Source: an uncultured Candidatus Saccharibacteria bacterium (lineage in GTDB: Bacteria > Patescibacteriota > Saccharimonadia > Saccharimonadales > 2-12-FULL-41-12). From it: DNA of 64,000 bases. Below are positions 6,767 to 61,044 of the stretch, in pieces. The stretch lies in contig CAZFPJ010000001.1 in the NCBI GenBank assembly GCA_964521095.1, positions 224,166 to 288,165 on the forward strand. Reading direction: 5' to 3'. The translations under genes were made by a program, and so were the position numbers. Numbering within the stretch: the stretch's first letter is position 1; the number at the start of each line of letters is the position of its first letter. The notes beneath the pieces were generated by a model, which saw only the letters and a program-made list of their open reading frames with translations, was not told the DNA's origin and made no database searches.

Positions 6767-7929
6767 GAAATATCTCCAGCGCTACGGGCTTGCTTGATTA
6801 ACAAATCACTTAATAAATCGGTTGCGCCATCAGGCACTAGTTTGTGTAAATTATTACCAAGTTGAGTACGCATCTTGGCATCGGTTAGCAAACTATCTAC
6901 CGTATTTTTTAGTTCGTCTCCAGATAAAATTTGATTCTCCTCTAGCACTATGGCTCCACTGGCTTTTTCTAGAATTCTAGCATTGTGTAGTTGATGCCCG
7001 CCCGTCAAATACGGGTTTGGCACTATTATGCAGGCCTTAGCTTGGACTGCAAATTCAGTAATAGCCGTTGCTCCAGCACGAGCAACTATAATATCTGATG
7101 CAGTAGAGTAAAGTGACATTGGACTCAAGAACGAAGACGCCAAAACTCTAGGCCTATATTTTGCATCAATATTCTTATACACATCCTCGTTGTCTTTACC
7201 TGTCTGATGTATAACAAACAAATCTTTGTGTTGCTTGAGAATATCCGGAATAATGCGACTAACCCCAGAATCTAGACGCTGAGCACCGTTACTCCCCCCG
7301 GTAATGAGCATTATCTTTGATTTTTTGGCATAGCCAAGTTTTTGCTTGGCTGAGGCCATGTCGGACGAAGTTACTTTTGTAAAATCTTTACCGACTGGGA
7401 CACCGACAAAAACTATCTTATCTTTGCTATAACCATAGTTCTCTACGGGCATGCCAACGGCATTAACCCGAGCCTTTTTACCAATAATCCTATTAGTTAG
7501 GCCAGCGATAGCGTCTGAGTCATGAGTGATGTACGGCACTCTCAATATTCCGGCAGCCAGCCCAATTGGAACACCAACAAAACCACCTTTTATAAAAATA
7601 ATATCGGGCTTTTCTTGCCTCAAAAGTCGTAGACTCTGAATAAATCCTCTTGCCAAACGGAATATATCACGAATATTCAAAAGAATAGTTTTTATATCCA
7701 AGCTCTTAGCAATGGATTGTCCATGATAACGACGCAATTTGCCTGCCGAGATAGTATAGGCTCTATCGATCCCAGCACTATCTATATCGATAATGGACGA
7801 GAACTTGCCCCCTTTTTCGGAGACAATAGACAGATAGATGTCAGGCTGTTTCTTGCGTAGTCTATCAGCGACCGCCAGAAGTGGCGTAATATGTCCGCCG
7901 CTTCCCCCGCCGACCAGCATAATTTTCAT
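6763..7929 (-). CDS. murG: UDP-N-acetylglucosamine--N-acetylmuramyl-(pentapeptide) pyrophosphoryl-undecaprenol GlcNAc transferase
   Basis: MKIMLVGGGSGGHITPLLAVA N-terminus, the GGSNGAQ region, and dcw context. Confidence 0.9.
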   Translation of the reverse strand: MKIMLVGGGSGGHITPLLAVADRLRKKQPDIYLSIVSEKGGKFSSIIDIDSAGIDRAYTISAGKLRRYHGQSIAKSLDIKTILLNIRDIFRLARGFIQSLRLLRQEKPDIIFIKGGFVGVPIGLAAGILRVPYITHDSDAIAGLTNRIIGKKARVNAVGMPVENYGYSKDKIVFVGVPVGKDFTKVTSSDMASAKQKLGYAKKSKIMLITGGSNGAQRLDSGVSRIIPDILKQHKDLFVIHQTGKDNEDVYKNIDAKYRPRVLASSFLSPMSLYSTASDIIVARAGATAITEFAVQAKACIIVPNPYLTGGHQLHNARILEKASGAIVLEENQILSGDELKNTVDSLLTDAKMRTQLGNNLHKLVPDGATDLLSDLLIKQARSAGDIS

Positions 7930-9162: not shown

Positions 9163-10206
9163 CTATATATGATAAGCATCGAGCAAGAAGATCATTAGTC
9201 CAATTACACCAAATACCTGCCCCATAACCCAGAACCTCATGGTGACCTTGGTCTCGGGCCAACCTGAAGCTTCGAAATGGTGATGTATCGGCGCGACTTT
9301 AAAAATCTTCTTTCCTCGAATTTTCTTAGATAATATCTGTAGTAGCGTAGAACCTGCTTCGGCCACAAACACTGCTCCAATAATTGGCAACAACAAAACT
9401 GTATCGGTAATCATGGCCACCACCCCCAGGGCCGTACCTAATGCAAAAGAGCCTACATCTCCCATAAAAAACCTAGCCGGATAAATATTGAACCATGTAT
9501 AGCTCAGTAACGCTCCAACCACCGTCATACAGAAGCCAGCCACACCTAGGCGCCCCTCCAAAAAAGCGATGATCGCATAAATAGCAAATGCCATAGCAAC
9601 CAAGCCACCTGCAAGCCCATCAAGGCCGTCGGTTATATTGACGGCATTTGCAGTACTGACTATTACCAGAACAAACAAAGGTATAATCAGCCAACCAATA
9701 AAGATACTGCCAAAACCAGGCACATTAATGCTATCTACATCTAACTTAAAGTAAAAGAACAATCCGCCAATCAGAGCTATCGCAGTCACCAGCAAAAACT
9801 TCATCTTGGAATTTAGCCCAGCTATGCCCAACCCATTGCCTCGTAAATTAATGATGTCATCTATCAGCCCAACTAGTGCAGCGCCAACAAAAGCGGCCAG
9901 AGGTAACCATGTTTGCTCTCTAGACAGATTAAAAAGAAGTGTCACTAATGTTACAGACACCAAAAATATTAACCCAGCCATGGTTGGAATATGGCGTTTG
10001 TGTTTTTCTTCGTGCAATTTAGCAAATATCTTGGCCTTTTCGCCTGTTACTGCGTCAGTCCGGGGTCGCTTCCACCACTCGTATTGATATGCCAAAGTTG
10101 TATAAAGAGGCGTTATAATCATGCTCATAGCAAAGCCTAAGAAAGCTAAAAATAGTATCTCTACTAGCTGGCTGTTCTCGATACTTATCAAAAATGAGTT
10201 TGTCAT
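9163..10206 (-). CDS. mraY: Phospho-N-acetylmuramoyl-pentapeptide transferase
   Basis: 347 aa. Motifs: PTMAGL, NAVNITDGLDGLA, MGDVGSFALG, APIHHHFE. Confidence 0.92.
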   Translation of the reverse strand: MTNSFLISIENSQLVEILFLAFLGFAMSMIITPLYTTLAYQYEWWKRPRTDAVTGEKAKIFAKLHEEKHKRHIPTMAGLIFLVSVTLVTLLFNLSREQTWLPLAAFVGAALVGLIDDIINLRGNGLGIAGLNSKMKFLLVTAIALIGGLFFYFKLDVDSINVPGFGSIFIGWLIIPLFVLVIVSTANAVNITDGLDGLAGGLVAMAFAIYAIIAFLEGRLGVAGFCMTVVGALLSYTWFNIYPARFFMGDVGSFALGTALGVVAMITDTVLLLPIIGAVFVAEAGSTLLQILSKKIRGKKIFKVAPIHHHFEASGWPETKVTMRFWVMGQVFGVIGLMIFLLDAYHI

Positions 10207-10279
10207 AGTTTTGTTTTATCCTTGGTTAGGTCTGCTACTTATTATACCGCTTATCGACCTTGTTACCTATACTCTATAG

Positions 10280-11995
10280 CTACGGGCTCATGGAGTAATT
10301 ATTGATCAACATATCGGCAACCTTGCCAAACATAGGTGCTGCCGCTTTTGTGCCAGCATATCCAGGAACATGGGGCTCTATCATGCTCACCATAATCACA
10401 TACCGTGGCTTGTCTGCTCCGACATAACCGACAAAAGTTCCGTTATAACGATCGTCATAATACCCACCGCCACTCTTGGATATTTCTGCAGTCCCAGTTT
10501 TGCCACCAATTCTATATCCTGGGCGCTTCAAAAAAGTATAGTTTTTGGCAACAGAATTTTCGTGCATCAATCTCATTTCTTCAGAGACCTGTGGCTTTAC
10601 TACATCAGATCTAACAACTGCAGGCTTACCCTTGTCTGGCTCGACCAAATGAGGCTTATAATACACACCTCCATTAACCGTAGAAGAGAATGCCCCCGCA
10701 AACTGCAGAGGAGTAATATTAATGCCCTGCCCAAAGGTTGTATTGGCGTATTGGATGTTCAAGCCCCAACCGTCATTTGGACTAGGGACATAACCCTCGG
10801 ACTCATATCCCTGCTCTATCCCCGTCTTCTTGCCAAATTGATAATGATTGGTTAAGTAGTCATACCATTTATTTCGTGCTTGTTCATTAATCTTTCCGCC
10901 CCCTAGTTGCATTAGCACCCATGTAGCACCTGTATTAAGCGAATACCTCAAAATATCCGAGGTCGAACGAGTTGCCGCACCACCATCTTCCTCCACATTT
11001 CTGATCGTTGCCTCGTCTACCTTCCAGTAACCTGGGTCAGGATAGGTAGTGTTGGCGTTAATAACCCCTTCGTTCATACCAGATGCCACCGTCAATGTCT
11101 TCATGACAGAACCAAGCTCAAAAGGTGCTCCAACAGAAGCATTGGCAAATAAACTAGTGTCGCTGACTTTATAAAACTCTGCCGGGTTGTAGGTAGGATA
11201 ATTAGCCATAGCTTTAACTGCACCAGTAGATGTGTCTAGAACAATCACACTGCCCTGTTTTGCCTTGACCGAAGGCACATGCTCTTTTAGCATATCTTCA
11301 ACCTTGCGTTGCATCCCAAGATCAATAGTCAAAGATACTTGCTTCCCTTGCACGGGTTCCTGCCTAACATTATCGCCATTAGCCGCCAAAGGCACTCCAC
11401 GAACATCCGTAATGGCCTTTAGTGCACCGTTTTTACCTCTTAGCTCTTTGTCTAGATACTGTTCTATACCATAAGAACCCTTGCCTTCGTCATTAACAAA
11501 CCCAAGCAACTGAGACGCTAAAGACCCTTGGGGATATGTACGGATAGACTCAACCCTAACCCCAACTCCCTTTAGCTCCAACTTCGTTATTTGGTCATTC
11601 TGAGACTTATTAAGCCTCTTGGCTAAGACTGCATAGCGAGTCGATTGCTTCATCTTTTTCTTGTAATCCGAGGCATCACCTTTAGTGACTTTCGCTAGAT
11701 CCTCAGCTGTTTTGTCTGCATCCTTTATGTATTTAGGGTCTGCAAACAAGGTATAAGTATCTTCATTCAGCACAATTGGCACCACCGCACTGCCGTCGTG
11801 CGCCGTGATAATGCCTCTCTCGGCAGGGATCTCGTACTCTTTATACTGCCCACTCATAGCCGCCTGAGCATAATATTTGTGCTGGATAACCTGTATGTAA
11901 AAAAGTCGCAGTATAAAAATTGCAAAGATAAATATAACTACACCAAAAAATAGGTCTAATCTAACCGCACTATGTTTGAGTGATGATCGTTGCAT
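10280..11995 (-). CDS. ftsI: Class B penicillin-binding protein / division transpeptidase FtsI
   Basis: 571 aa with an N-terminal TM segment and a PBP dimerisation domain. Transpeptidase motifs: SVMK (SxxK), SLN (SxN), KTGT. Confidence 0.85.
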   Translation of the reverse strand: MQRSSLKHSAVRLDLFFGVVIFIFAIFILRLFYIQVIQHKYYAQAAMSGQYKEYEIPAERGIITAHDGSAVVPIVLNEDTYTLFADPKYIKDADKTAEDLAKVTKGDASDYKKKMKQSTRYAVLAKRLNKSQNDQITKLELKGVGVRVESIRTYPQGSLASQLLGFVNDEGKGSYGIEQYLDKELRGKNGALKAITDVRGVPLAANGDNVRQEPVQGKQVSLTIDLGMQRKVEDMLKEHVPSVKAKQGSVIVLDTSTGAVKAMANYPTYNPAEFYKVSDTSLFANASVGAPFELGSVMKTLTVASGMNEGVINANTTYPDPGYWKVDEATIRNVEEDGGAATRSTSDILRYSLNTGATWVLMQLGGGKINEQARNKWYDYLTNHYQFGKKTGIEQGYESEGYVPSPNDGWGLNIQYANTTFGQGINITPLQFAGAFSSTVNGGVYYKPHLVEPDKGKPAVVRSDVVKPQVSEEMRLMHENSVAKNYTFLKRPGYRIGGKTGTAEISKSGGGYYDDRYNGTFVGYVGADKPRYVIMVSMIEPHVPGYAGTKAAAPMFGKVADMLINNYSMSP

Positions 11996-54195: not shown

Positions 54196-55098
54196 TTATA
54201 TTTTGGTGAATAATTCTGGACGCGTCTGTGGTAGACCGCTAAACTCTTCTGCTATTTTTTTAGTTAACGGACCAATATTCTTTGAGATTATTGTATTCTC
54301 AATCTGGCTACACCAGGTTATGTCGGTTGCTGTACCGCTAAAAAACACTTCGTCTGCTTGCAAAAGTTCATCGCGAGACACCTTGCGCTCGGCTACCTTT
54401 ATACCTAGCTCCTCGGCAATCTCTAGCACCGTTCTGCGAGTAATGCCTTCCAGTATGTCGCTATCTATAGATGGCGTAATAAGCTGACTGTCTTTAACGA
54501 GAAACAAGTTCATTACCGCACCTTCACTGACAAATCCATCTTTGTCTAACATAATTGACGAGTCAAAACCTTTGGCTTTGGCTTCACTAATAGCTAGTGC
54601 CGAATTAATATATCCGCCAGTAGCCTTGGTGCGAGGAGGAATAGACTTATTACTGTTTCGTTGCCAATCCGAGATATCGACTCGTAGCCCGTTTGGTGAC
54701 TGAAAATAAGCTGGCATATCTAACATATATACGGCTAGCTCGTAGTCGCCTGCTATGTCAGGAGAGATATTTGTGTCGCTCCGATATATGAGTGGGCGTA
54801 TGTACGCTGTTGTCTTTGGGCTATTTTTTTGGGCAGTATTTAAGATGGCTTTTTTTACCAATACATTGTCAAAATTATAATGAAACCCCAGAGCTTGTAC
54901 GCTTTGCTTCATGCGCGCAATATGGTCATCTAGCCGAAAAATGGCTACTCCAGCATCTGTTTTGAAAGCCTTAATCCCGCCAAAGATACCCGTGCCGTAG
55001 TGCAAGGCATTTGTCATAATAGAAATTTGAGCCTCTTCTATTGGTACGACTTTCTCTTCAAAAAAAGCGTATGGATACGGTTTAAAATTTTTACTCAT
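54196..55098 (-). CDS. ilvE: Branched-chain/class IV aminotransferase
   Basis: 300-aa fold-type IV pattern (HYGTGIFGGIKAF, YIRPLIY, GGYINSALA, EGITRRTV). Confidence 0.85.
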   Translation of the reverse strand: MSKNFKPYPYAFFEEKVVPIEEAQISIMTNALHYGTGIFGGIKAFKTDAGVAIFRLDDHIARMKQSVQALGFHYNFDNVLVKKAILNTAQKNSPKTTAYIRPLIYRSDTNISPDIAGDYELAVYMLDMPAYFQSPNGLRVDISDWQRNSNKSIPPRTKATGGYINSALAISEAKAKGFDSSIMLDKDGFVSEGAVMNLFLVKDSQLITPSIDSDILEGITRRTVLEIAEELGIKVAERKVSRDELLQADEVFFSGTATDITWCSQIENTIISKNIGPLTKKIAEEFSGLPQTRPELFTKI

Positions 55099-56165
55099 TT
55101 TGTTTTTACCCCAACTGGATACGAACCCAATACTTTACAAATTTGTGTATGACGAGACATGTCGTCTACTGCCCTAGCTACCTTGGCGTCCTTTGTGTGT
55201 CCAATAAAATCAATATAAAAAGCATACTGTCCTGCCTTGTATGGCTGAGACTCCAAGCGGGTCATAGATATGTCATTGCCCGCCAGAACCCCAAGGAGTT
55301 CATGCAGTGCACCCGGCTTGTCCTTGATCACACAAACAAGAGAAGTCTTGTCATCCCCAGTTGGCTGTGTCTCGAATTTACCAATAGCGATAAATCGCGT
55401 TTGATTATCTGGCTGGTCATTAATGCCCTTTTCGACAATATTAATATCGTATATTTCGGCTGTTTTGTTGCTGGCTATCGCTGAAGTGCTCGGCTCTTTC
55501 GAAGCCATCTCGGCTGCGGCTGCATTGCTATCTACAGAAATCTGCTTGGCCTTTGGCAAATGAGTTGCCAGCCATGCTCTGCATTGCCCGAAAGACTGTG
55601 GATGGGCATAAATAGTTTGAATTTCTGCTAGCTCTGACTGCTTGGACAGCAAACAATGCACCACCGGCAAAGTAATCTCGGAGACAATCTTTGCATTTGT
55701 ATCTAGCAATAGCTTATGCGCCTCTCTAACGGCTCCTTCTGACGAATTTTCAATAGGAATTACAGCAATCTGAATAGTACCTGCCTCGACCGAACGGAAC
55801 ACTGCCGGCAGGGTCTGCTCACTCTCAAGACTAATATCTTCGCCAAACAAACGCTCCACTGCCTCCTGACTATAAGTCCCTTTAGGGCCCAAGTAACCTA
55901 CCTTTAACTTGCCAGCTAACTGTATATTCCTAAATTGATTTATGACCGATGCAAAGATAGATCCTATGGCTTCTTCTGTTAGTGGGCCGGTATTTTTGGT
56001 AACCAACCTCTTGACAATCTGTTGTTCTCGCTCCGGCCGAATTGCCGAGCTACCCTGCTTGGTCTTTTTGACAGCCAAACTGTATCCTAGCCTTTCGTTT
56101 AGCAACGCCAAAATTTGATCATCGATTTTATCGATTTCTGTTCTTATGTCGTTTAATTTATCCAT
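55095..56165 (-). CDS. pheA: Bifunctional chorismate mutase / prephenate dehydratase (with ACT domain)
   Basis: CM (IRTEIDKIDDQILALLNERL), PDT (VGYLGPKGTYSQEA, TRF), ACT (TSLVCVIKDKPGALHELL). Confidence 0.9.
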   Translation of the reverse strand: MDKLNDIRTEIDKIDDQILALLNERLGYSLAVKKTKQGSSAIRPEREQQIVKRLVTKNTGPLTEEAIGSIFASVINQFRNIQLAGKLKVGYLGPKGTYSQEAVERLFGEDISLESEQTLPAVFRSVEAGTIQIAVIPIENSSEGAVREAHKLLLDTNAKIVSEITLPVVHCLLSKQSELAEIQTIYAHPQSFGQCRAWLATHLPKAKQISVDSNAAAAEMASKEPSTSAIASNKTAEIYDINIVEKGINDQPDNQTRFIAIGKFETQPTGDDKTSLVCVIKDKPGALHELLGVLAGNDISMTRLESQPYKAGQYAFYIDFIGHTKDAKVARAVDDMSRHTQICKVLGSYPVGVKTK

Positions 56166-56191
56166 GTATGCTCTTCTACGATCTTTCCCTT

Positions 56192-57202
56192 TTACTTTGT
56201 TGCGACAATTTGTGCTATCTCTGCAACAGCCAGCTCCATCTCGTCTGCGCCAATGCAGTCGTCGGTCTTGCTAAGACCTCTTTCTAAATGCGCCTCTAGC
56301 ATTATACCTCTAAAGCCAGCTATATCACTCTGCTTTATCATCGCAGACAGGTGCGCTAATGCTCTTAGCTGGCCATCGGCAGTTTTTTGGCCACCGTGTG
56401 CCACCGCGTTACCATGCGCACAATCTACCAAGAAAGGCTCGTCATCTTCTGCAGTTTCAAAAATTTGTTTTTCAAATTTTTCTGGACCATCAATCTTGTC
56501 ACCGCCCCGCAAAATCAATCCTGTGCTTTTGTTGCCTACAGAGTCAACCTCGACCAACTGGTTATTCTGGTCGATTATGTCTACTTTATGTGGTTGACCG
56601 GAGGTTTTTATAGCATCCAAAGCTGACCCTACACTTCCGCTTGAATCGTTCTTGAACAGAACCGGGATGTCATTATGCGCTGACACAGCATGCCTAAGCA
56701 TGGTATCTTCTACATTTCGTGCACCAACCCAACCCATAGTCAGTAGTCCACCAAATCTTGCAAAATGCTTTTCGTGCATCAGCTCGATTGCCAAGGGAAC
56801 TCCAGTATTAGCAAGATTAGACATCAGCTCGTATGCCTTCTCTAGATTGGTATTTTCTAGCCCCACCCAACCAAGGTTAGTCCTTGGTTTTGCAGGCGGA
56901 GTCCGCATAACCAACAGTATATTCTTATTAATATTAGGGTCTTTGCTTAATGCACTAACTCTTTCTCCTAAACGATAAATTATAGGCACGCCATCGCTAT
57001 CTATCTGCTCGTCTAAAGAACAGGGACCAACTACAACAATTTTTCGCTTATCTTGGCCTTTTAATATGTCATTAACGGCCTGTCTGTTTTGGTCAATCCG
57101 CTCGCTTACCCCTAGATCAAGTGGGTACATCCGATCCAGCTCTTCTGGTGTAATTGGGTGTCGCAATATTTCCCTTTCACTATTTTTTTCTAATACTTCC
57201 AT
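56192..57202 (-). CDS. aroG: 3-deoxy-7-phosphoheptulonate (DAHP) synthase, class I alpha (AroF/G/H-like)
   Basis: ILKGQDKRKIVVVGPCS, KPRTNLGWVGL, GARNVED, FKNDSSG, ILRGG, DCAHGN. These are collinear with E. coli AroG motifs. A GGAG RBS lies 5 nt upstream. Confidence 0.9.
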   Translation of the reverse strand: MEVLEKNSEREILRHPITPEELDRMYPLDLGVSERIDQNRQAVNDILKGQDKRKIVVVGPCSLDEQIDSDGVPIIYRLGERVSALSKDPNINKNILLVMRTPPAKPRTNLGWVGLENTNLEKAYELMSNLANTGVPLAIELMHEKHFARFGGLLTMGWVGARNVEDTMLRHAVSAHNDIPVLFKNDSSGSVGSALDAIKTSGQPHKVDIIDQNNQLVEVDSVGNKSTGLILRGGDKIDGPEKFEKQIFETAEDDEPFLVDCAHGNAVAHGGQKTADGQLRALAHLSAMIKQSDIAGFRGIMLEAHLERGLSKTDDCIGADEMELAVAEIAQIVATK

Positions 57203-57216
57203 TATATCTCCAAATT

Positions 57217-57250
57217 AAAAATCGCCTCGTTCTTTTCGAGGCGACCTTTT
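57217..57250 (-). terminator. Intrinsic terminator hairpin in the aroG leader (candidate attenuator)
   Basis: On the minus strand: TCGCCTCG-aaaagaa-CGAGGCGA followed by TTTTTAATTT, which runs straight into the aroG RBS. The stem is 8 perfect bp at 57222-57229 / 57237-57244. Confidence 0.6.
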
Positions 57251-57269
57251 TCTTTTTTAAAATTAAATA

Positions 57270-57329
57270 CTAGCTAGCCGCCTCAATATAGTCGGTAAAA
57301 TATCCTTGCCAGCTAATAATATTTTTCAT
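57270..57329 (-). CDS. Candidate 19-aa leader peptide MKNIISWQGYFTDYIEAAS
   Basis: ATG at 57329 and TAG at 57270-57272. It contains Trp, Tyr, Phe and Tyr codons. Its last codons (GAG GCG) can pair with the 5-prime arm of the terminator. Confidence 0.3.
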   Translation of the reverse strand: MKNIISWQGYFTDYIEAAS

Positions 57330-57357
57330 ATCAATAATAATCCTATCACCAAACAGT

Positions 57358-57942
57358 CTAATGGACAAATACTGGTTGCAATATTAATTCGCGATTAGTT
57401 ATTTCGGCTATTTTATCTAGTCGACTTATTGTTCTACGATTATCGAAGTGTCCCACATGGTCTTGGTCTAAAAGAGCAACGCTACAATGTGGAGTATAGC
57501 TATCTGGACTGTTTGGATCGGGCACTAGCGGGAACCCAGCTTCCTTGTAATTATTAGAACACTGAGCAAACTCGTTTATCAACTCGTCTGACTCTATGCC
57601 AAACGCCAGCTTATACTTAGATCCAGCGCCATAAATCCCAATTTTACCGACAGTAGCAACAATCTGCTCACTACATGAAGGAATTTGCTCAATCATATCA
57701 CTGGTCTTTGGGCCGCTCTCTCGAAGGCGTTTATTGAACCGCTTAAAACCAACCACCGTAACAGACAGATCTTCTACCTTAAAGAATCTATCTGTGCCCT
57801 GAATCTCCGCCCGAAGAGCTTTGGATGCATCTTCAAATACCTCAAAACTCTCGGGGCTAATCTTTCGGCGCACAGCATAAACGCCACGATTATTGGCTAC
57901 CTCCACCACTTGCCTATTGTGATTGGGCTTTCTCTTGGCCAT
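57358..57942 (-). CDS. Hypothetical protein (weak 2H-phosphoesterase-like HxS motif)
   Basis: 194-aa ORF. Only one H-x-S/T-x motif is present (TPHCSVAL). Confidence 0.5.
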   Translation of the reverse strand: MAKRKPNHNRQVVEVANNRGVYAVRRKISPESFEVFEDASKALRAEIQGTDRFFKVEDLSVTVVGFKRFNKRLRESGPKTSDMIEQIPSCSEQIVATVGKIGIYGAGSKYKLAFGIESDELINEFAQCSNNYKEAGFPLVPDPNSPDSYTPHCSVALLDQDHVGHFDNRRTISRLDKIAEITNRELILQPVFVH

Positions 57943-58687: not shown

Positions 58688-59473
58688 TTATTTATTTAGC
58701 GATGCGATAATAATCAAGCCAAGGACAATCTTGCTAGCAAGGTCTACGAGCAAATGGTTTCGTTCGATGAGTAGGTATTCTTTCCATCCCTTGCGTCCGC
58801 TAATGTGCAGGTATCTGTTAAGGCCAAACAAAAAGAAGCTCACTATAAGCGTTGCGGACAAAGCATAAATACTCCAAGAGAATCGCTCCATACCATAGAC
58901 AGCAGTGCCCACAATATTAGCTAGGAGTGGCAACAATGCCATCAGCCCAGTAAATACACTCAGGCCAAAAGCTAGCCATTTCTTACTGCCAGAAAATGCA
59001 ATTTCCCTTTCGGAGATCCAGCCAAGCAATGACGACACAAGCACTAGTGCACCTACAAGCTTTAGGGTAGCTAGGTCGCTAATGCCAGACAATAAACTAA
59101 CTACAACCAACGATATGGCTGTGGTAACACCTATAAATATCCATTTGTAACCAGACACCTTCTTTTTTAAGGTAGCCTCGTAGTTGTTGCGAAGTTTTGT
59201 GGCAAGTAAGATCGATAGAACTGCTGTAGCCACAAACATACCGGCAAAAAGATACCGCACCTGAACTGTGTACAGCTCTTTAAAGGCTGGGGCCAAAACA
59301 ACTTCATTACCCTGCGCCAAAACATTTCTAGCCATATAGCTTAGCCAAACATCTACTGTCTGACTAGCCAAAGCTACTGCGGATACTACGGCCAAAACCG
59401 CTGTGATAACTGCACTAGCAATATTAGTTTTTTTAATCTGCTCTTGTAATACTTTTTTCGTTGGTACTTTCAT
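58688..59473 (-). CDS. Heliorhodopsin-family-like 7TM protein (Lys retained in TM7; counterion Glu absent)
   Basis: 261 aa with 7 predicted TM segments and a long TM1-TM2 loop. It is collinear with remembered heliorhodopsin 48C12 blocks:
- NYEATLKKKVSGYKW vs RYSASLMKNQNIFRW
- SGISDLATL vs CGIADIVAL
- LLGWISE vs LFGWLQE
- RKGWKEYLLIERNHLLVDLASKIVLG vs KGKWSNYLRGERAYIVLSLVAKSALA
Lys248 is encoded at 58730-58732. Confidence 0.55.
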   Translation of the reverse strand: MKVPTKKVLQEQIKKTNIASAVITAVLAVVSAVALASQTVDVWLSYMARNVLAQGNEVVLAPAFKELYTVQVRYLFAGMFVATAVLSILLATKLRNNYEATLKKKVSGYKWIFIGVTTAISLVVVSLLSGISDLATLKLVGALVLVSSLLGWISEREIAFSGSKKWLAFGLSVFTGLMALLPLLANIVGTAVYGMERFSWSIYALSATLIVSFFLFGLNRYLHISGRKGWKEYLLIERNHLLVDLASKIVLGLIIIASLNK

Positions 59474-59511: not shown

Positions 59512-61044
59512 TTATCGTTCAAGGCGCAAACGAGCGACTAGCCAATCTCTGGGTAATATGCTCAAAAACCAACCAGCTCTTGGGCCAGCATCTTTATTAA
59601 TCGTTACCCTATAAATAGTCTGAAATAGATCTTTTGGACCCAAGCCACTGCTGTCTCTTAGTTCGTATATAGCTTGGTGAAACCAATTGCCGTCGGCGTC
59701 GTTGGGGGCATTGTCTATTTTGCTAGCAAGATCCGACAAAAACTTTTTCTGAATGTCACTAAAACTACTTTGGTCTACTGCATCGACAAGCTCAAAAACT
59801 ACATCCTCGGGTGCCCAATTTTGTAGCCAACTGTCGATAAAAGCTAGCTCCCGGATGATGACTTCTCTCTGTTTTTGGGCGGTTTCTTTATGCTCTGTCC
59901 GCTCAATTACCTCTAAAGTTTTATTAACATCTTTTAGTGACGATTGGTAACTAGCTACAAGATGAGTAAAAGGAATATTACTAATAGTTTGGTCTTCTAC
60001 ATCGGCCATGCATAGCCTTACAAGTTGCTGTTCGGTCTCTGTTTTATTGGCCTTTGCAATGAGCTCGGCAAACTCGTCGACCAAACGAATCAGGGTCGGG
60101 CCTTGGTCAAAGAACAGTTGCTTTTCGGGAGCATACCGCAAAATAAAATACCAAACAATCTCAGGGGGCAGAACCTGGAGCAATTCCGATGCAGTGATTG
60201 TATCGCCAGCACTTTTGCTCATCTTTTTAGTTTCGCCTGTGCGATTAATAAAGTTATACGGTATAGGCACTGGGGCAGTGCCTCCGAAGACCTCGGCGAC
60301 GATTCGCTTGCCAGTGTCATATGACCCACCTTTTGTAGCATGATCTCGCCCAAATGGCTCAGCACCCACACCAAACAAAGGCCACCTAGCAGGCCAGTCA
60401 ATTCGCCAACTTAGTTTTACATCTCCACTGGCGTAACTAACCGTCTGTTCACCACCATCTTTATCTGTACATACAATTGTTTTGTCATCTTTGTTTATAG
60501 ATATATACTGCCGATTCTTAAGATATCCGTCCTCTATAATCTGCACGGGTGACCACTGCTCATTTAGTTGTCTACCAGAAACCTCCTCTAGTATTGTCTT
60601 GATTTTTGGTAAATTTTCTAACGCCGTTTCTATAGGCTCAACAAAATACCCACTCCGGTATTTTTCGTGTGCTCGCACAATATCCATATCGAGCTTCATA
60701 GCCTTCGAAGCGTCTAATAGATCATTCAAGAAATAATCTGCATAAGATTGCTTGGAACCGTCTGGTGCTGGTACATCTGCCAGTGGTTTGCCCAAATATT
60801 GGCTAAAGTTCTCTGGCACATCTGCAGGAACTTTCCGAAAAGAATCCAGGTCATCCACAACATGTGTGTGTGTAGCCTCTCGGCCTCTAAAGCGAAGTTC
60901 TCTGGCTATTATCTCTGCTGTCAGTACTTCTCGGAGTGTACCGATATGATAAGTCCCAGACGGCGACACGCCAGAGCTAACTACAATTTCCCCCTTAGGG
61001 TTTTTTGCAATAACTTCATCGACTACATTATTTAACCACTGCAT
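59512..61044 (-). CDS. lysK: Lysine--tRNA ligase, class I (archaeal-type)
   Basis: SGVSPSGTYHIGTLREV (HIGH-like) and KMSKSAGD (KMSKS). The length and order fit a class I LysRS. Confidence 0.9.
   Translation of the reverse strand: MQWLNNVVDEVIAKNPKGEIVVSSGVSPSGTYHIGTLREVLTAEIIARELRFRGREATHTHVVDDLDSFRKVPADVPENFSQYLGKPLADVPAPDGSKQSYADYFLNDLLDASKAMKLDMDIVRAHEKYRSGYFVEPIETALENLPKIKTILEEVSGRQLNEQWSPVQIIEDGYLKNRQYISINKDDKTIVCTDKDGGEQTVSYASGDVKLSWRIDWPARWPLFGVGAEPFGRDHATKGGSYDTGKRIVAEVFGGTAPVPIPYNFINRTGETKKMSKSAGDTITASELLQVLPPEIVWYFILRYAPEKQLFFDQGPTLIRLVDEFAELIAKANKTETEQQLVRLCMADVEDQTISNIPFTHLVASYQSSLKDVNKTLEVIERTEHKETAQKQREVIIRELAFIDSWLQNWAPEDVVFELVDAVDQSSFSDIQKKFLSDLASKIDNAPNDADGNWFHQAIYELRDSSGLGPKDLFQTIYRVTINKDAGPRAGWFLSILPRDWLVARLRLER

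Follow-up and report, generated by a model that had tools for sequence, protein, structure and literature searches.

The 64,000-nucleotide (nt) window analysed here, taken from contig CAZFPJ010000001.1 of an uncultured Candidatus Saccharibacteria bacterium, carries an aroG-pheA-ilvE operon on its minus strand. The operon is preceded by a gap of 155 nt (57357-57203) that separates an unannotated 194-aa open reading frame (ORF; 57358-57942) from the gene for a 336-aa 3-deoxy-D-arabino-heptulosonate 7-phosphate (DAHP) synthase. With a probability of roughly 0.85 we read this gap as a ribosome-mediated transcription attenuator that responds to the charging of tRNA-Trp, tRNA-Tyr and tRNA-Phe and controls read-through into aroG-pheA-ilvE. 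Confidence in this mechanism rests wholly on sequence and comparative evidence: a mini-ORF with Trp, Tyr or Phe codons, an antiterminator and a terminator also precede a gene for DAHP synthase, or for a protein like it, in nine further Saccharibacteria lineages. A leader-peptide attenuator had been proposed for this DNA in a sequence-only reading, which this comparison supports. Features of the window lie on the minus strand unless stated otherwise.

Terminator, antiterminator and mini-ORF upstream of aroG

The terminator hairpin (57246-57220) is followed by a U tract. The core of its stem is formed by UCGCCUCG (57244-57237) and CGAGGCGA (57229-57222), separated by the loop AAAAGAA and followed by the U tract UUUUUAAUUU (57212-57221); the stem reaches 13 bp when G-U and A-U pairs are added. 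Its 5' arm, GGUCGCCUCG(A) at 57236-57246, is common to antiterminator and terminator and is here called region 3, while the 3' arm, CGAGGCGAUU at 57220-57229, is region 4. The 8-bp GC-rich hairpin with U tract reported by the sequence-only reading is thus present, and it folds at -18.3 kcal/mol compared with -6.5 +/- 2.1 kcal/mol for shuffled sequences (z = -5.7; 0 of 200 shuffles equal it). Folding of the whole 155-nt gap gave z = -3.7. The aroG Shine-Dalgarno sequence GGAG (57208-57211), located 5 nt from the ATG at 57202, begins 5 nt past the end of the U tract, in keeping with the earlier estimate of about 6 nt, and there is indeed no room for a promoter between terminator and aroG, as had been noted. 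In a scan of the 64-kb window, no other strong terminator hairpin was found in an intergenic stretch immediately ahead of a co-directional gene (19 nt here); because this case stands alone in 64 kb, hairpins of this kind are not routine at the gene junctions of this genome. On the plus strand, 57222-57256 also reads as a terminator, with a stem followed by CCUUUUUCUU, and no plus-strand gene converges there. The A tract that precedes the stem probably accounts for this bidirectional look.

Upstream of the hairpin, the predicted 19-codon ORF was found with its Trp, Tyr, Phe and Tyr codons (MKNIISWQGYFTDYIEAAS, 57270-57329, ending in UAG), as was the Shine-Dalgarno-like AGGA 11 nt upstream of its ATG. 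A longer, TTG-started ORF of 32 aa extending into the upstream gene was rejected as implausible. The antiterminator consists of 11 bp between UUGAGGCGGCU (region 2, 57286-57276) and GGUCGCCUCGA (57246-57236). Pairing of GAGGCG with CGCCUC had been proposed from the sequence; the complementarity stands, with a duplex energy of -19.1 kcal/mol against -10.7 +/- 2.5 kcal/mol for 1000 dinucleotide shuffles (p = 0.004), and the duplex is 11 rather than 6 bp long. This 2:3 pairing is the minimum free energy (MFE) structure of the nascent RNA as long as the 3' arm of the terminator is still untranscribed. Region 1, UAUUAGCUGGC (57308-57318, codons I4-W7), provides in the MFE fold the 5' strand of a 1:2 (anti-antiterminator) hairpin with an 11-bp stem, 57318-57308 with 57278-57268, and the untranslated leader folds at -15.1 kcal/mol. 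The 3' end of region 2 overlaps this 1:2 stem and the stop codon follows 3 nt farther on. As the 1:2 hairpin ties up the 3' end of region 2 in the untranslated leader, the layout is the classical one of 1:2, 2:3 and 3:4 pairings. The Trp codon UGG (W7, 57309-57311) lies within region 1, and the Tyr-Phe codons UAU UUU (Y10 and F11, 57297-57302) would be the last stall sites that spare region 2.

The same architecture in related lineages

Relatives were sought as loci fetched for members of the small divergent DAHP-synthase clade to which the window enzyme belongs. The comparison of aroG upstream regions that the earlier reading had recommended revealed the mini-ORF in all nine further lineages and compensatory changes in both helices. 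Two loci, designated group A, have the leader followed by genes for prephenate dehydratase and DAHP synthase (L004, MRITCMNWNGFFYNCFLRGGLAS; L005, MQTKCMNLNGFFYNCFFEAVRPVSA). In group B, the leader precedes DAHP synthase and trpS in L008 (VQHIDFQNTYWYTATNRDGLFAVYMLS) and L010 (MTTRQTFDFYWFTSR), a 91-aa ORF, DAHP synthase and trpS in L006 (MTFMTHQNNYWFTGTSVAVCSVRS), and DAHP synthase in L091 (MKQIANQQYWFTGTTRGGLFRVFA), L092 (VNKHTTHNPYWFTGFAIRRYAYCFV) and L093 (MSSVQNNQYWFFTDSRGGKFCMSA); the assignment of trpS was confirmed by NCBIfam in L006, L008 and L010. The remaining locus, L098 (MSRLIWNVFYFTGSNEADGSVLA), comes from an abundant Saccharimonadales lineage, and here a DAHP-synthase-like gene heads an operon with tyrA, pheA, ilvE and trpS. 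The operons are thus tied to aromatic amino acids throughout (aroG-pheA-ilvE, pheA-aroG, aroG-trpS and aroG-like-tyrA-pheA-ilvE-trpS), and every relative's leader runs into a GC-rich hairpin with a U tract just ahead of the Shine-Dalgarno sequence of the first gene.

The peptides encoded by the relatives are MRITCMNWNGFFYNCF..., MQTKCMNLNGFFYNCFF..., ...NNYWFTG..., ...NTYWYTA..., ...FDFYWFTSR, ...QQYWFTG..., ...NPYWFTG..., ...NQYWFFTD... and ...WNVFYFTG.... Aromatic runs occupy codons 9-13 of the ten leaders (YF, FFY, FYF, YWF, YWY, YWFF or FYWF) and begin at codon 9-11 in 10/10. MAFFT aligned Y10-F11 of the window under the YWF and FFY runs of the relatives (UAUUUUACC vs UGGUUUACC). For comparison, among 1903 small ORFs from all six frames of the same DNA, runs of at least three aromatic codons occur in 2.7% and start at codon 9-11 in 0.6%, while runs of at least two starting at codon 9-11 are found in 2.9%; the aromatic content of the real proteins of the window is 8.2%. 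The 8-9 codons at the N-terminus are unrelated in sequence and constant in number. L008 has Y where others have F, so that the aromatic character is kept. One codon each for Trp, Tyr and Phe recurs in most relatives, L005 and L008 each being without one of the three.

The primary sequences of the leaders differ while their geometry is conserved. In every locus, 40-49 nt separate the start codon from the beginning of region 2, and the core of region 2 starts 12-16 nt past the first base of the last aromatic codon; the spacing is smaller, 6-9 nt, in four loci in which the best duplex extends 5' (L004, L005, L092) or has outer pairs. The stop codon lies past region 2 in nine of the ten loci, and just before region 2 in L010. 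L004 and L005 are separated by a 1-nt indel after the aromatic run, their C-terminal peptides differ, and both frames are open past region 2. Every untranslated leader folds region 2 into an upstream 1:2 structure, with energies of -11 to -21 kcal/mol. The Thr-Gly codons that directly follow the aromatic run in group B and L098 read ACCGGC and supply the 5' strand of the 1:2 hairpin, a role that explains why their nucleotides are conserved.

Pairing between leader and terminator 5' arm was compared with 1000 shuffles. The p-values were 0.001-0.086 in the first eight loci, with a Fisher-combined value of 2e-10 that is overstated because some of the loci are close relatives (L004 of L005; L006, L091 and L093 of one another); L093 and L098 gave 0.002 and 0.02, respectively. 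Covariation was assessed on a 9-sequence composite alignment of region 2 plus regions 3/4, which replaced a full-length MAFFT alignment of the leaders in which the helices were out of register. In the antiterminator, 90% of the cells are paired, and sliding the partner lowers this to 28-55%; both sides are altered in three pairs (AU/UA 4:4, GC to AU, UA to CG), and 1 of 500 shuffles attains the covariation score of 0.278. These figures have to be read with the fact that the segments were anchored on complementary cores, so that the alignment leans towards structure. The terminator is paired in 84% of the cells with three compensatory pairs (3 of 500 shuffles), and the partners in region 2 and region 4 change in step at single region 3 positions.

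Ribosome position and the choice of fold

The effect of a translating ribosome was modelled by masking its footprint during folding; these are equilibrium models only. Both the terminator and the antiterminator, whose energies the sequence-only reading had suggested comparing, are present, and constrained partition functions favour the terminator state of the free window leader by 11.9 kcal/mol. With the footprint centred anywhere from W7 to F11, this advantage drops to 1.9-2.6 kcal/mol (2.3 at W7), and it climbs again from T12 on, where region 2 is covered. The models therefore point to W7, Y10 and F11 as the productive stall sites, with Y14 too near region 2, which a ribosome there would mask. 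Hence the proposal that a ribosome stalled at the Trp, Tyr and Phe codons frees region 2 agrees with the models for the first three of these codons and fails for Y14. Among the relatives, the change of the ensemble from antiterminator to terminator comes immediately beyond the aromatic run in L004, L005 and L006, and inside the last codon of the run in L010. Mask folding in these four loci and in the window thus bears out the expectation that a ribosome past the aromatic run or at the stop codon masks the antiterminator. The P(antiterminator) columns for L008 and L098 were disregarded, as the automatically picked pair sets were wrong.

Proposed mechanism

The steps outlined below follow from the sequence read against the classical E. 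coli trp model. Transcription would start at or just before the mini-ORF, or come in from the upstream gene. If the leader remained untranslated, region 1 (57318-57308) would pair with the 3' part of region 2, the 3:4 terminator would form and transcription would stop at 57221-57212. With plentiful aromatic aminoacyl-tRNAs, the ribosome would reach the UAG at 57272-57270 and cover region 2, again allowing the terminator to form. Should Trp, Tyr or Phe become scarce, the ribosome would stall with W7, Y10 or F11 in the A site and cover region 1, leaving region 2 (57286-57276) free to pair with region 3 (57246-57236) once the latter is transcribed. Formation of 2:3 would block the terminator, and RNA polymerase would continue into aroG. 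With a single codon for each of Trp, Tyr and Phe, the attenuator would be multivalent, which would fit control of a common first enzyme and would explain the scarcity of regulatory codons that the sequence-only reading gave as a caveat.

Several points weigh against this reading, in addition to the relatedness of the loci and the anchoring of the alignment. The aromatic run of the window comprises only two codons (YF) plus a separate W, and the Shine-Dalgarno sequence of the mini-ORF is poor (AGGA at 11 nt). The promoter-like hexamers of the window are weak, and the TAnnnT pattern described below is weakest here. Three DAHP-synthase homologues, L009, L097 and the distant L094, are without a leader. 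Finally, equilibrium folding of the window leader keeps the terminator ahead even with a stalled ribosome (P(antiterminator) <= 0.04); as equilibrium never favours the antiterminator in the window, the switch would have to be kinetic, with 2:3 transcribed before 3:4.

Alternative explanations

An untranslated RNA-only sensor, either miniature T-box-like or a ligand riboswitch, would treat the conserved UAUUGGUUUACCGG as a specifier or ligand site rather than as codons. A 15-nt block, UAUUGGUUUACCGGC, which bears a loose likeness to the T-box core GGUGGUACCGCG, is shared by L006, L091 and L092 down to the synonymous positions, although their DAHP synthases are only about 40-45% identical, and the shorter UAUUGGUUU is present in L093 too. 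We nevertheless hold such a sensor to be quite improbable. A cmscan with 4227 Rfam models gave no match in the window at the gathering score, and none in the window leader or in the leaders of seven relatives at E values up to 10; neither the T-box nor the leu/phe leader, nor Phe_leader and Trp_leader, the families of pheL and trpL, matched any of the leaders searched. At about 105-145 nt from the start codon of the mini-ORF to the end of the U tract (about 110 nt to the terminator in the window), the leaders are also too short for a Stem I. ACCGGC is accounted for as the 5' strand of the 1:2 hairpin, and group A has other aromatic codons (FFY, YF) at the same position. Moreover, the distance to an in-frame start codon upstream stays at 8-10 codons although the sequence in between is unrelated, the frames stay open past region 2 in 9/10 loci, even across the L004/L005 frameshift, and the stop of L010 just before region 2 resembles that of E. 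coli trpL.

According to a second explanation, the hairpin simply serves the upstream 194-aa gene as its intrinsic terminator, leaky read-through accounts for the expression of aroG, and mini-ORF and complementarity are due to chance. The position of the hairpin, 110-140 nt downstream of a co-directional gene, would suit this, as would its bidirectional look, with an A tract before the stem and a U tract after it; promoter-like matches are about as frequent as chance predicts for such AT-rich DNA (31 vs 26 expected). Against it stands a syntenic relative without aro genes, L096, whose seryl-tRNA synthetase is 71% identical and in which no hairpin follows the homologous 202-aa gene. In L006, the leader follows a divergent gene, for which the hairpin cannot be the terminator. 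Other co-directional junctions in the window are without terminators, and ten lineages share the mini-ORF, the placement of its aromatic run and the antiterminator, with covariation. We therefore regard a plain terminator as highly improbable. L095, which has tyrA-pheA-ilvE without a DAHP synthase, shows a 42-nt gap and no leader. Leader and terminator thus travel with operons headed by DAHP synthase, a link that is not absolute in view of L009, L097 and L094.

Least probable of all is a TnaC-like arrest peptide with the motif [YW]-F-T-[GD] that senses a free aromatic amino acid in the ribosome tunnel. It would suit the conservation, from group to group, of what follows the aromatic run (T, then G, D, A or S), but pairing of the RNA as region 1 already explains the T-G codons, and apart from these residues the peptides share neither sequence nor length. 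Biosynthetic genes and trpS, moreover, need induction on starvation, which stalling at hungry codons gives directly.

Comparison with known attenuators

Leader-peptide attenuation by a tRNA-sensing mini-ORF, the reading preferred here, has its closest functional analogue in aroR-aroF of Corynebacterium glutamicum, where a Phe-Tyr-Phe leader peptide is encoded upstream of the DAHP synthase gene aroF (PMC11802643, PMC4046766). Both systems would combine a short mixed aromatic run, a DAHP synthase operon and a choice between terminator and antiterminator, and L098 carries F-Y-F; the likeness is one of function and of the F-Y-F leader, not of compared sequences. The corynebacterial case belongs to the Actinomycetota, whereas the Saccharibacteria copies usually add a Trp codon and often have trpS in the operon. 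In E. coli pheL-pheA and pheST, leader-peptide attenuation controls chorismate mutase-prephenate dehydratase or an aminoacyl-tRNA synthetase through cognate aromatic codons (PMC11802643). There, pheL contains runs of seven Phe codons and responds to a single amino acid, in contrast to the one to four mixed aromatic codons of the Saccharibacteria leaders. With E. coli trpL they share the four regions pairing as 1:2, 2:3 and 3:4, regulatory codons in or just before region 1 and, in L010, the placement of the stop; trpL is Trp-only, whereas most Saccharibacteria copies put the stop after region 2 and would be multivalent.

Multivalent attenuators are represented by the thr operon (Thr and Ile) and by ilvGMEDA (Leu, Val and Ile). 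They too mix, within one leader, codons for several end products of a shared pathway, but use many codons of each kind where the Saccharibacteria leaders have essentially one per amino acid. What would set the present leaders apart is the phylum, about one codon each for Tyr, Trp and Phe, and the frequent co-regulation of trpS. Our literature search on Saccharibacteria attenuators and on leader-peptide attenuation in the Candidate Phyla Radiation (CPR) found nothing relevant. We would suggest only tentatively, as something possible rather than probable, that this is the first amino-acid-sensing cis-regulator described in CPR and that these attenuators make up a family specific to Saccharibacteria, leaderless and multivalent for Trp+Tyr+Phe.

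In general, the genomes of Saccharibacteria and other CPR bacteria are very small, few regulators can be recognised in them, and amino acid biosynthesis is nearly absent. Conservation of an attenuator would show that such bacteria retain a classical mechanism built on the coupling of transcription to translation, and that some lineages tune aromatic amino acid genes and tryptophanyl-tRNA synthetase to tRNA charging. If the tentative view of a first such regulator in CPR holds, these episymbionts would couple the two processes and monitor the (host-derived) supply of aromatic amino acids, and a regulated DAHP synthase that is often accompanied only by trpS, without further shikimate genes in its vicinity, would serve a partial or host-complemented pathway rather than complete de novo synthesis. 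The single-codon Y-W-F design would be a compact case of multivalent attenuation. The mini-ORF with its four regions would furthermore offer a sequence handle for finding regulated metabolic cassettes in CPR metagenomes, and it flags a divergent DAHP-synthase clade with one member under the Pfam cut-off.

Expression of the mini-ORF

The mini-ORFs are without a good Shine-Dalgarno sequence, in contrast to the GGAG or AGGAG of the structural genes. In 7/9 loci, the end of a TAnnnT hexamer falls 5-10 nt ahead of the mini-ORF start (binomial 5e-5), and TACAAT in L098 fits this pattern too. Such proximity to the start codons suggests a leaderless mRNA or a very short 5' untranslated region, and with lower confidence we infer that the mini-ORF is probably translated from a leaderless or nearly leaderless transcript. 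A precedent comes from corynebacteria, in which leader-peptide genes can be leaderless (PMC5784534, PMC11857589); for the Corynebacterium diphtheriae ilvB leader, the transcription start site is at the start codon (PMC5784534).

Candidate promoters with 17-nt spacers are TTGACA-17-TAGTCT in L093, TTGCAT-17-TACACT in L091, TTGGCT-17-TAAGCT in L005 and, by eye, TTGCAG-17-TACAAT in L098, each followed after 7 nt by the ATG. The candidate of the window from the sequence scan scores 8 of 12 and consists of a possible -35 element TTGTCC (57363-57368, low confidence) inside the 3' end of the 194-aa ORF, 17 nt, a possible -10 element TAGGAT (57340-57345) that overlaps the AGGA (57344-57341), and 10 nt to the ATG. 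CTGGCA-16-TATATT inside the mini-ORF was discarded as a promoter, since such matches occur at chance frequency and this one is not conserved. Imperfect inverted repeats lie over the putative group A promoter (TAGCAC...GTGCTA at 3975-4003 in L004, CACAGG...CCTGTG at 3969-4003 in L005); they may be an operator for a second layer of control, or chance.

Operon, neighbouring genes and searches

The annotation as aroG-pheA-ilvE is upheld by Pfam and NCBIfam matches to DAHP synthase, PheA and an IlvE-type aminotransferase. The aroG product (56192-57202) is a divergent class I-alpha (AroFGH-type) DAHP synthase that matches Pfam PF00793 with 97 bits, reaches 145.5 bits with TIGR00034, under the cut-off of 173, and has about 30-35% identity with proteobacterial AroF/G/H. 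It is followed by PheA with chorismate mutase, prephenate dehydratase and ACT domains (55095-56165; NF008865, 260 bits, over cut-off) and, with a 4-nt overlap, by a class IV (IlvE-type) aminotransferase (54196-55098; NF005146, 309 bits, over cut-off). None of aroB, aroD, aroE, aroK, aroA and aroC was found among the 50 window ORFs scanned with Pfam, the rest of the genome lying outside that scan, and in the group B loci only trpS adjoins DAHP synthase. The enzyme may be the orphan first step of a reduced genome, or the remaining shikimate genes may sit elsewhere. A seeming 1.1-kb stretch devoid of genes at 6767-7864 of the window arose from an overlap filter.

The L098 protein (9454-10422) is a DAHP-synthase homologue of 322 aa, 31% identical to P0004 (E = 3e-35), that scores 21 bits with PF00793, under the 25.5-bit cut-off, and has no Pfam family on record; the same holds for the L098-type DAHP-synthase clade in the collection searched. 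The 91-aa ORF between attenuator and DAHP synthase in L006 (4685-4960) is without a family match and occurs in this one lineage only. Profile searches of genome contigs gave no matches with a single DAHP synthase and, with an 11-sequence alignment, returned only distant proteobacterial and other DAHP synthases because the chosen pattern was generic. A metagenome search with the group A alignment yielded no matches, and a second one yielded L091-L094.

The leader is identical in three further assemblies of the same organism. As to affiliation, the seryl-tRNA synthetase of the window has 79% identity to a protein named 'Candidatus Saccharibacteria bacterium' at NCBI, and RpoA of L006 has 77-78% identity to proteins named Candidatus Saccharimonadales or Saccharibacteria. 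The neighbourhood in the window, with heliorhodopsin, class I lysyl-tRNA synthetase and densely packed genes mostly on one strand, likewise fits Saccharibacteria. The aro genes resemble a variable cassette in one syntenic slot upstream of genes for a PD-(D/E)XK nuclease and seryl-tRNA synthetase. This slot holds aroG-pheA-ilvE in the window (54196-57202, minus strand) and tyrA-pheA-ilvE in the closest relative, L095 (6015-8716), and is empty in L096 (8516-9993); in the window and L096 it follows the 194/202-aa gene. The conserved protein of 194-202 aa encoded between rsmE and the slot (57358-57942, minus strand, in the window; 3373-3963 in L005; 8516-9124 in L096) had no match in Pfam or NCBIfam. 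Two genes upstream of the leader lies the heliorhodopsin gene (58688-59473, minus strand; PF18761, 95 bits), whose position is syntenic in L004, L005, L095 and L096. The lysyl-tRNA synthetase (59512-61044, minus strand) is of the class I type (PF01921, 331 bits), and L004 carries instead, farther upstream at the left end of the locus, a putative class II (PF00152) counterpart with an OB anticodon-binding domain.

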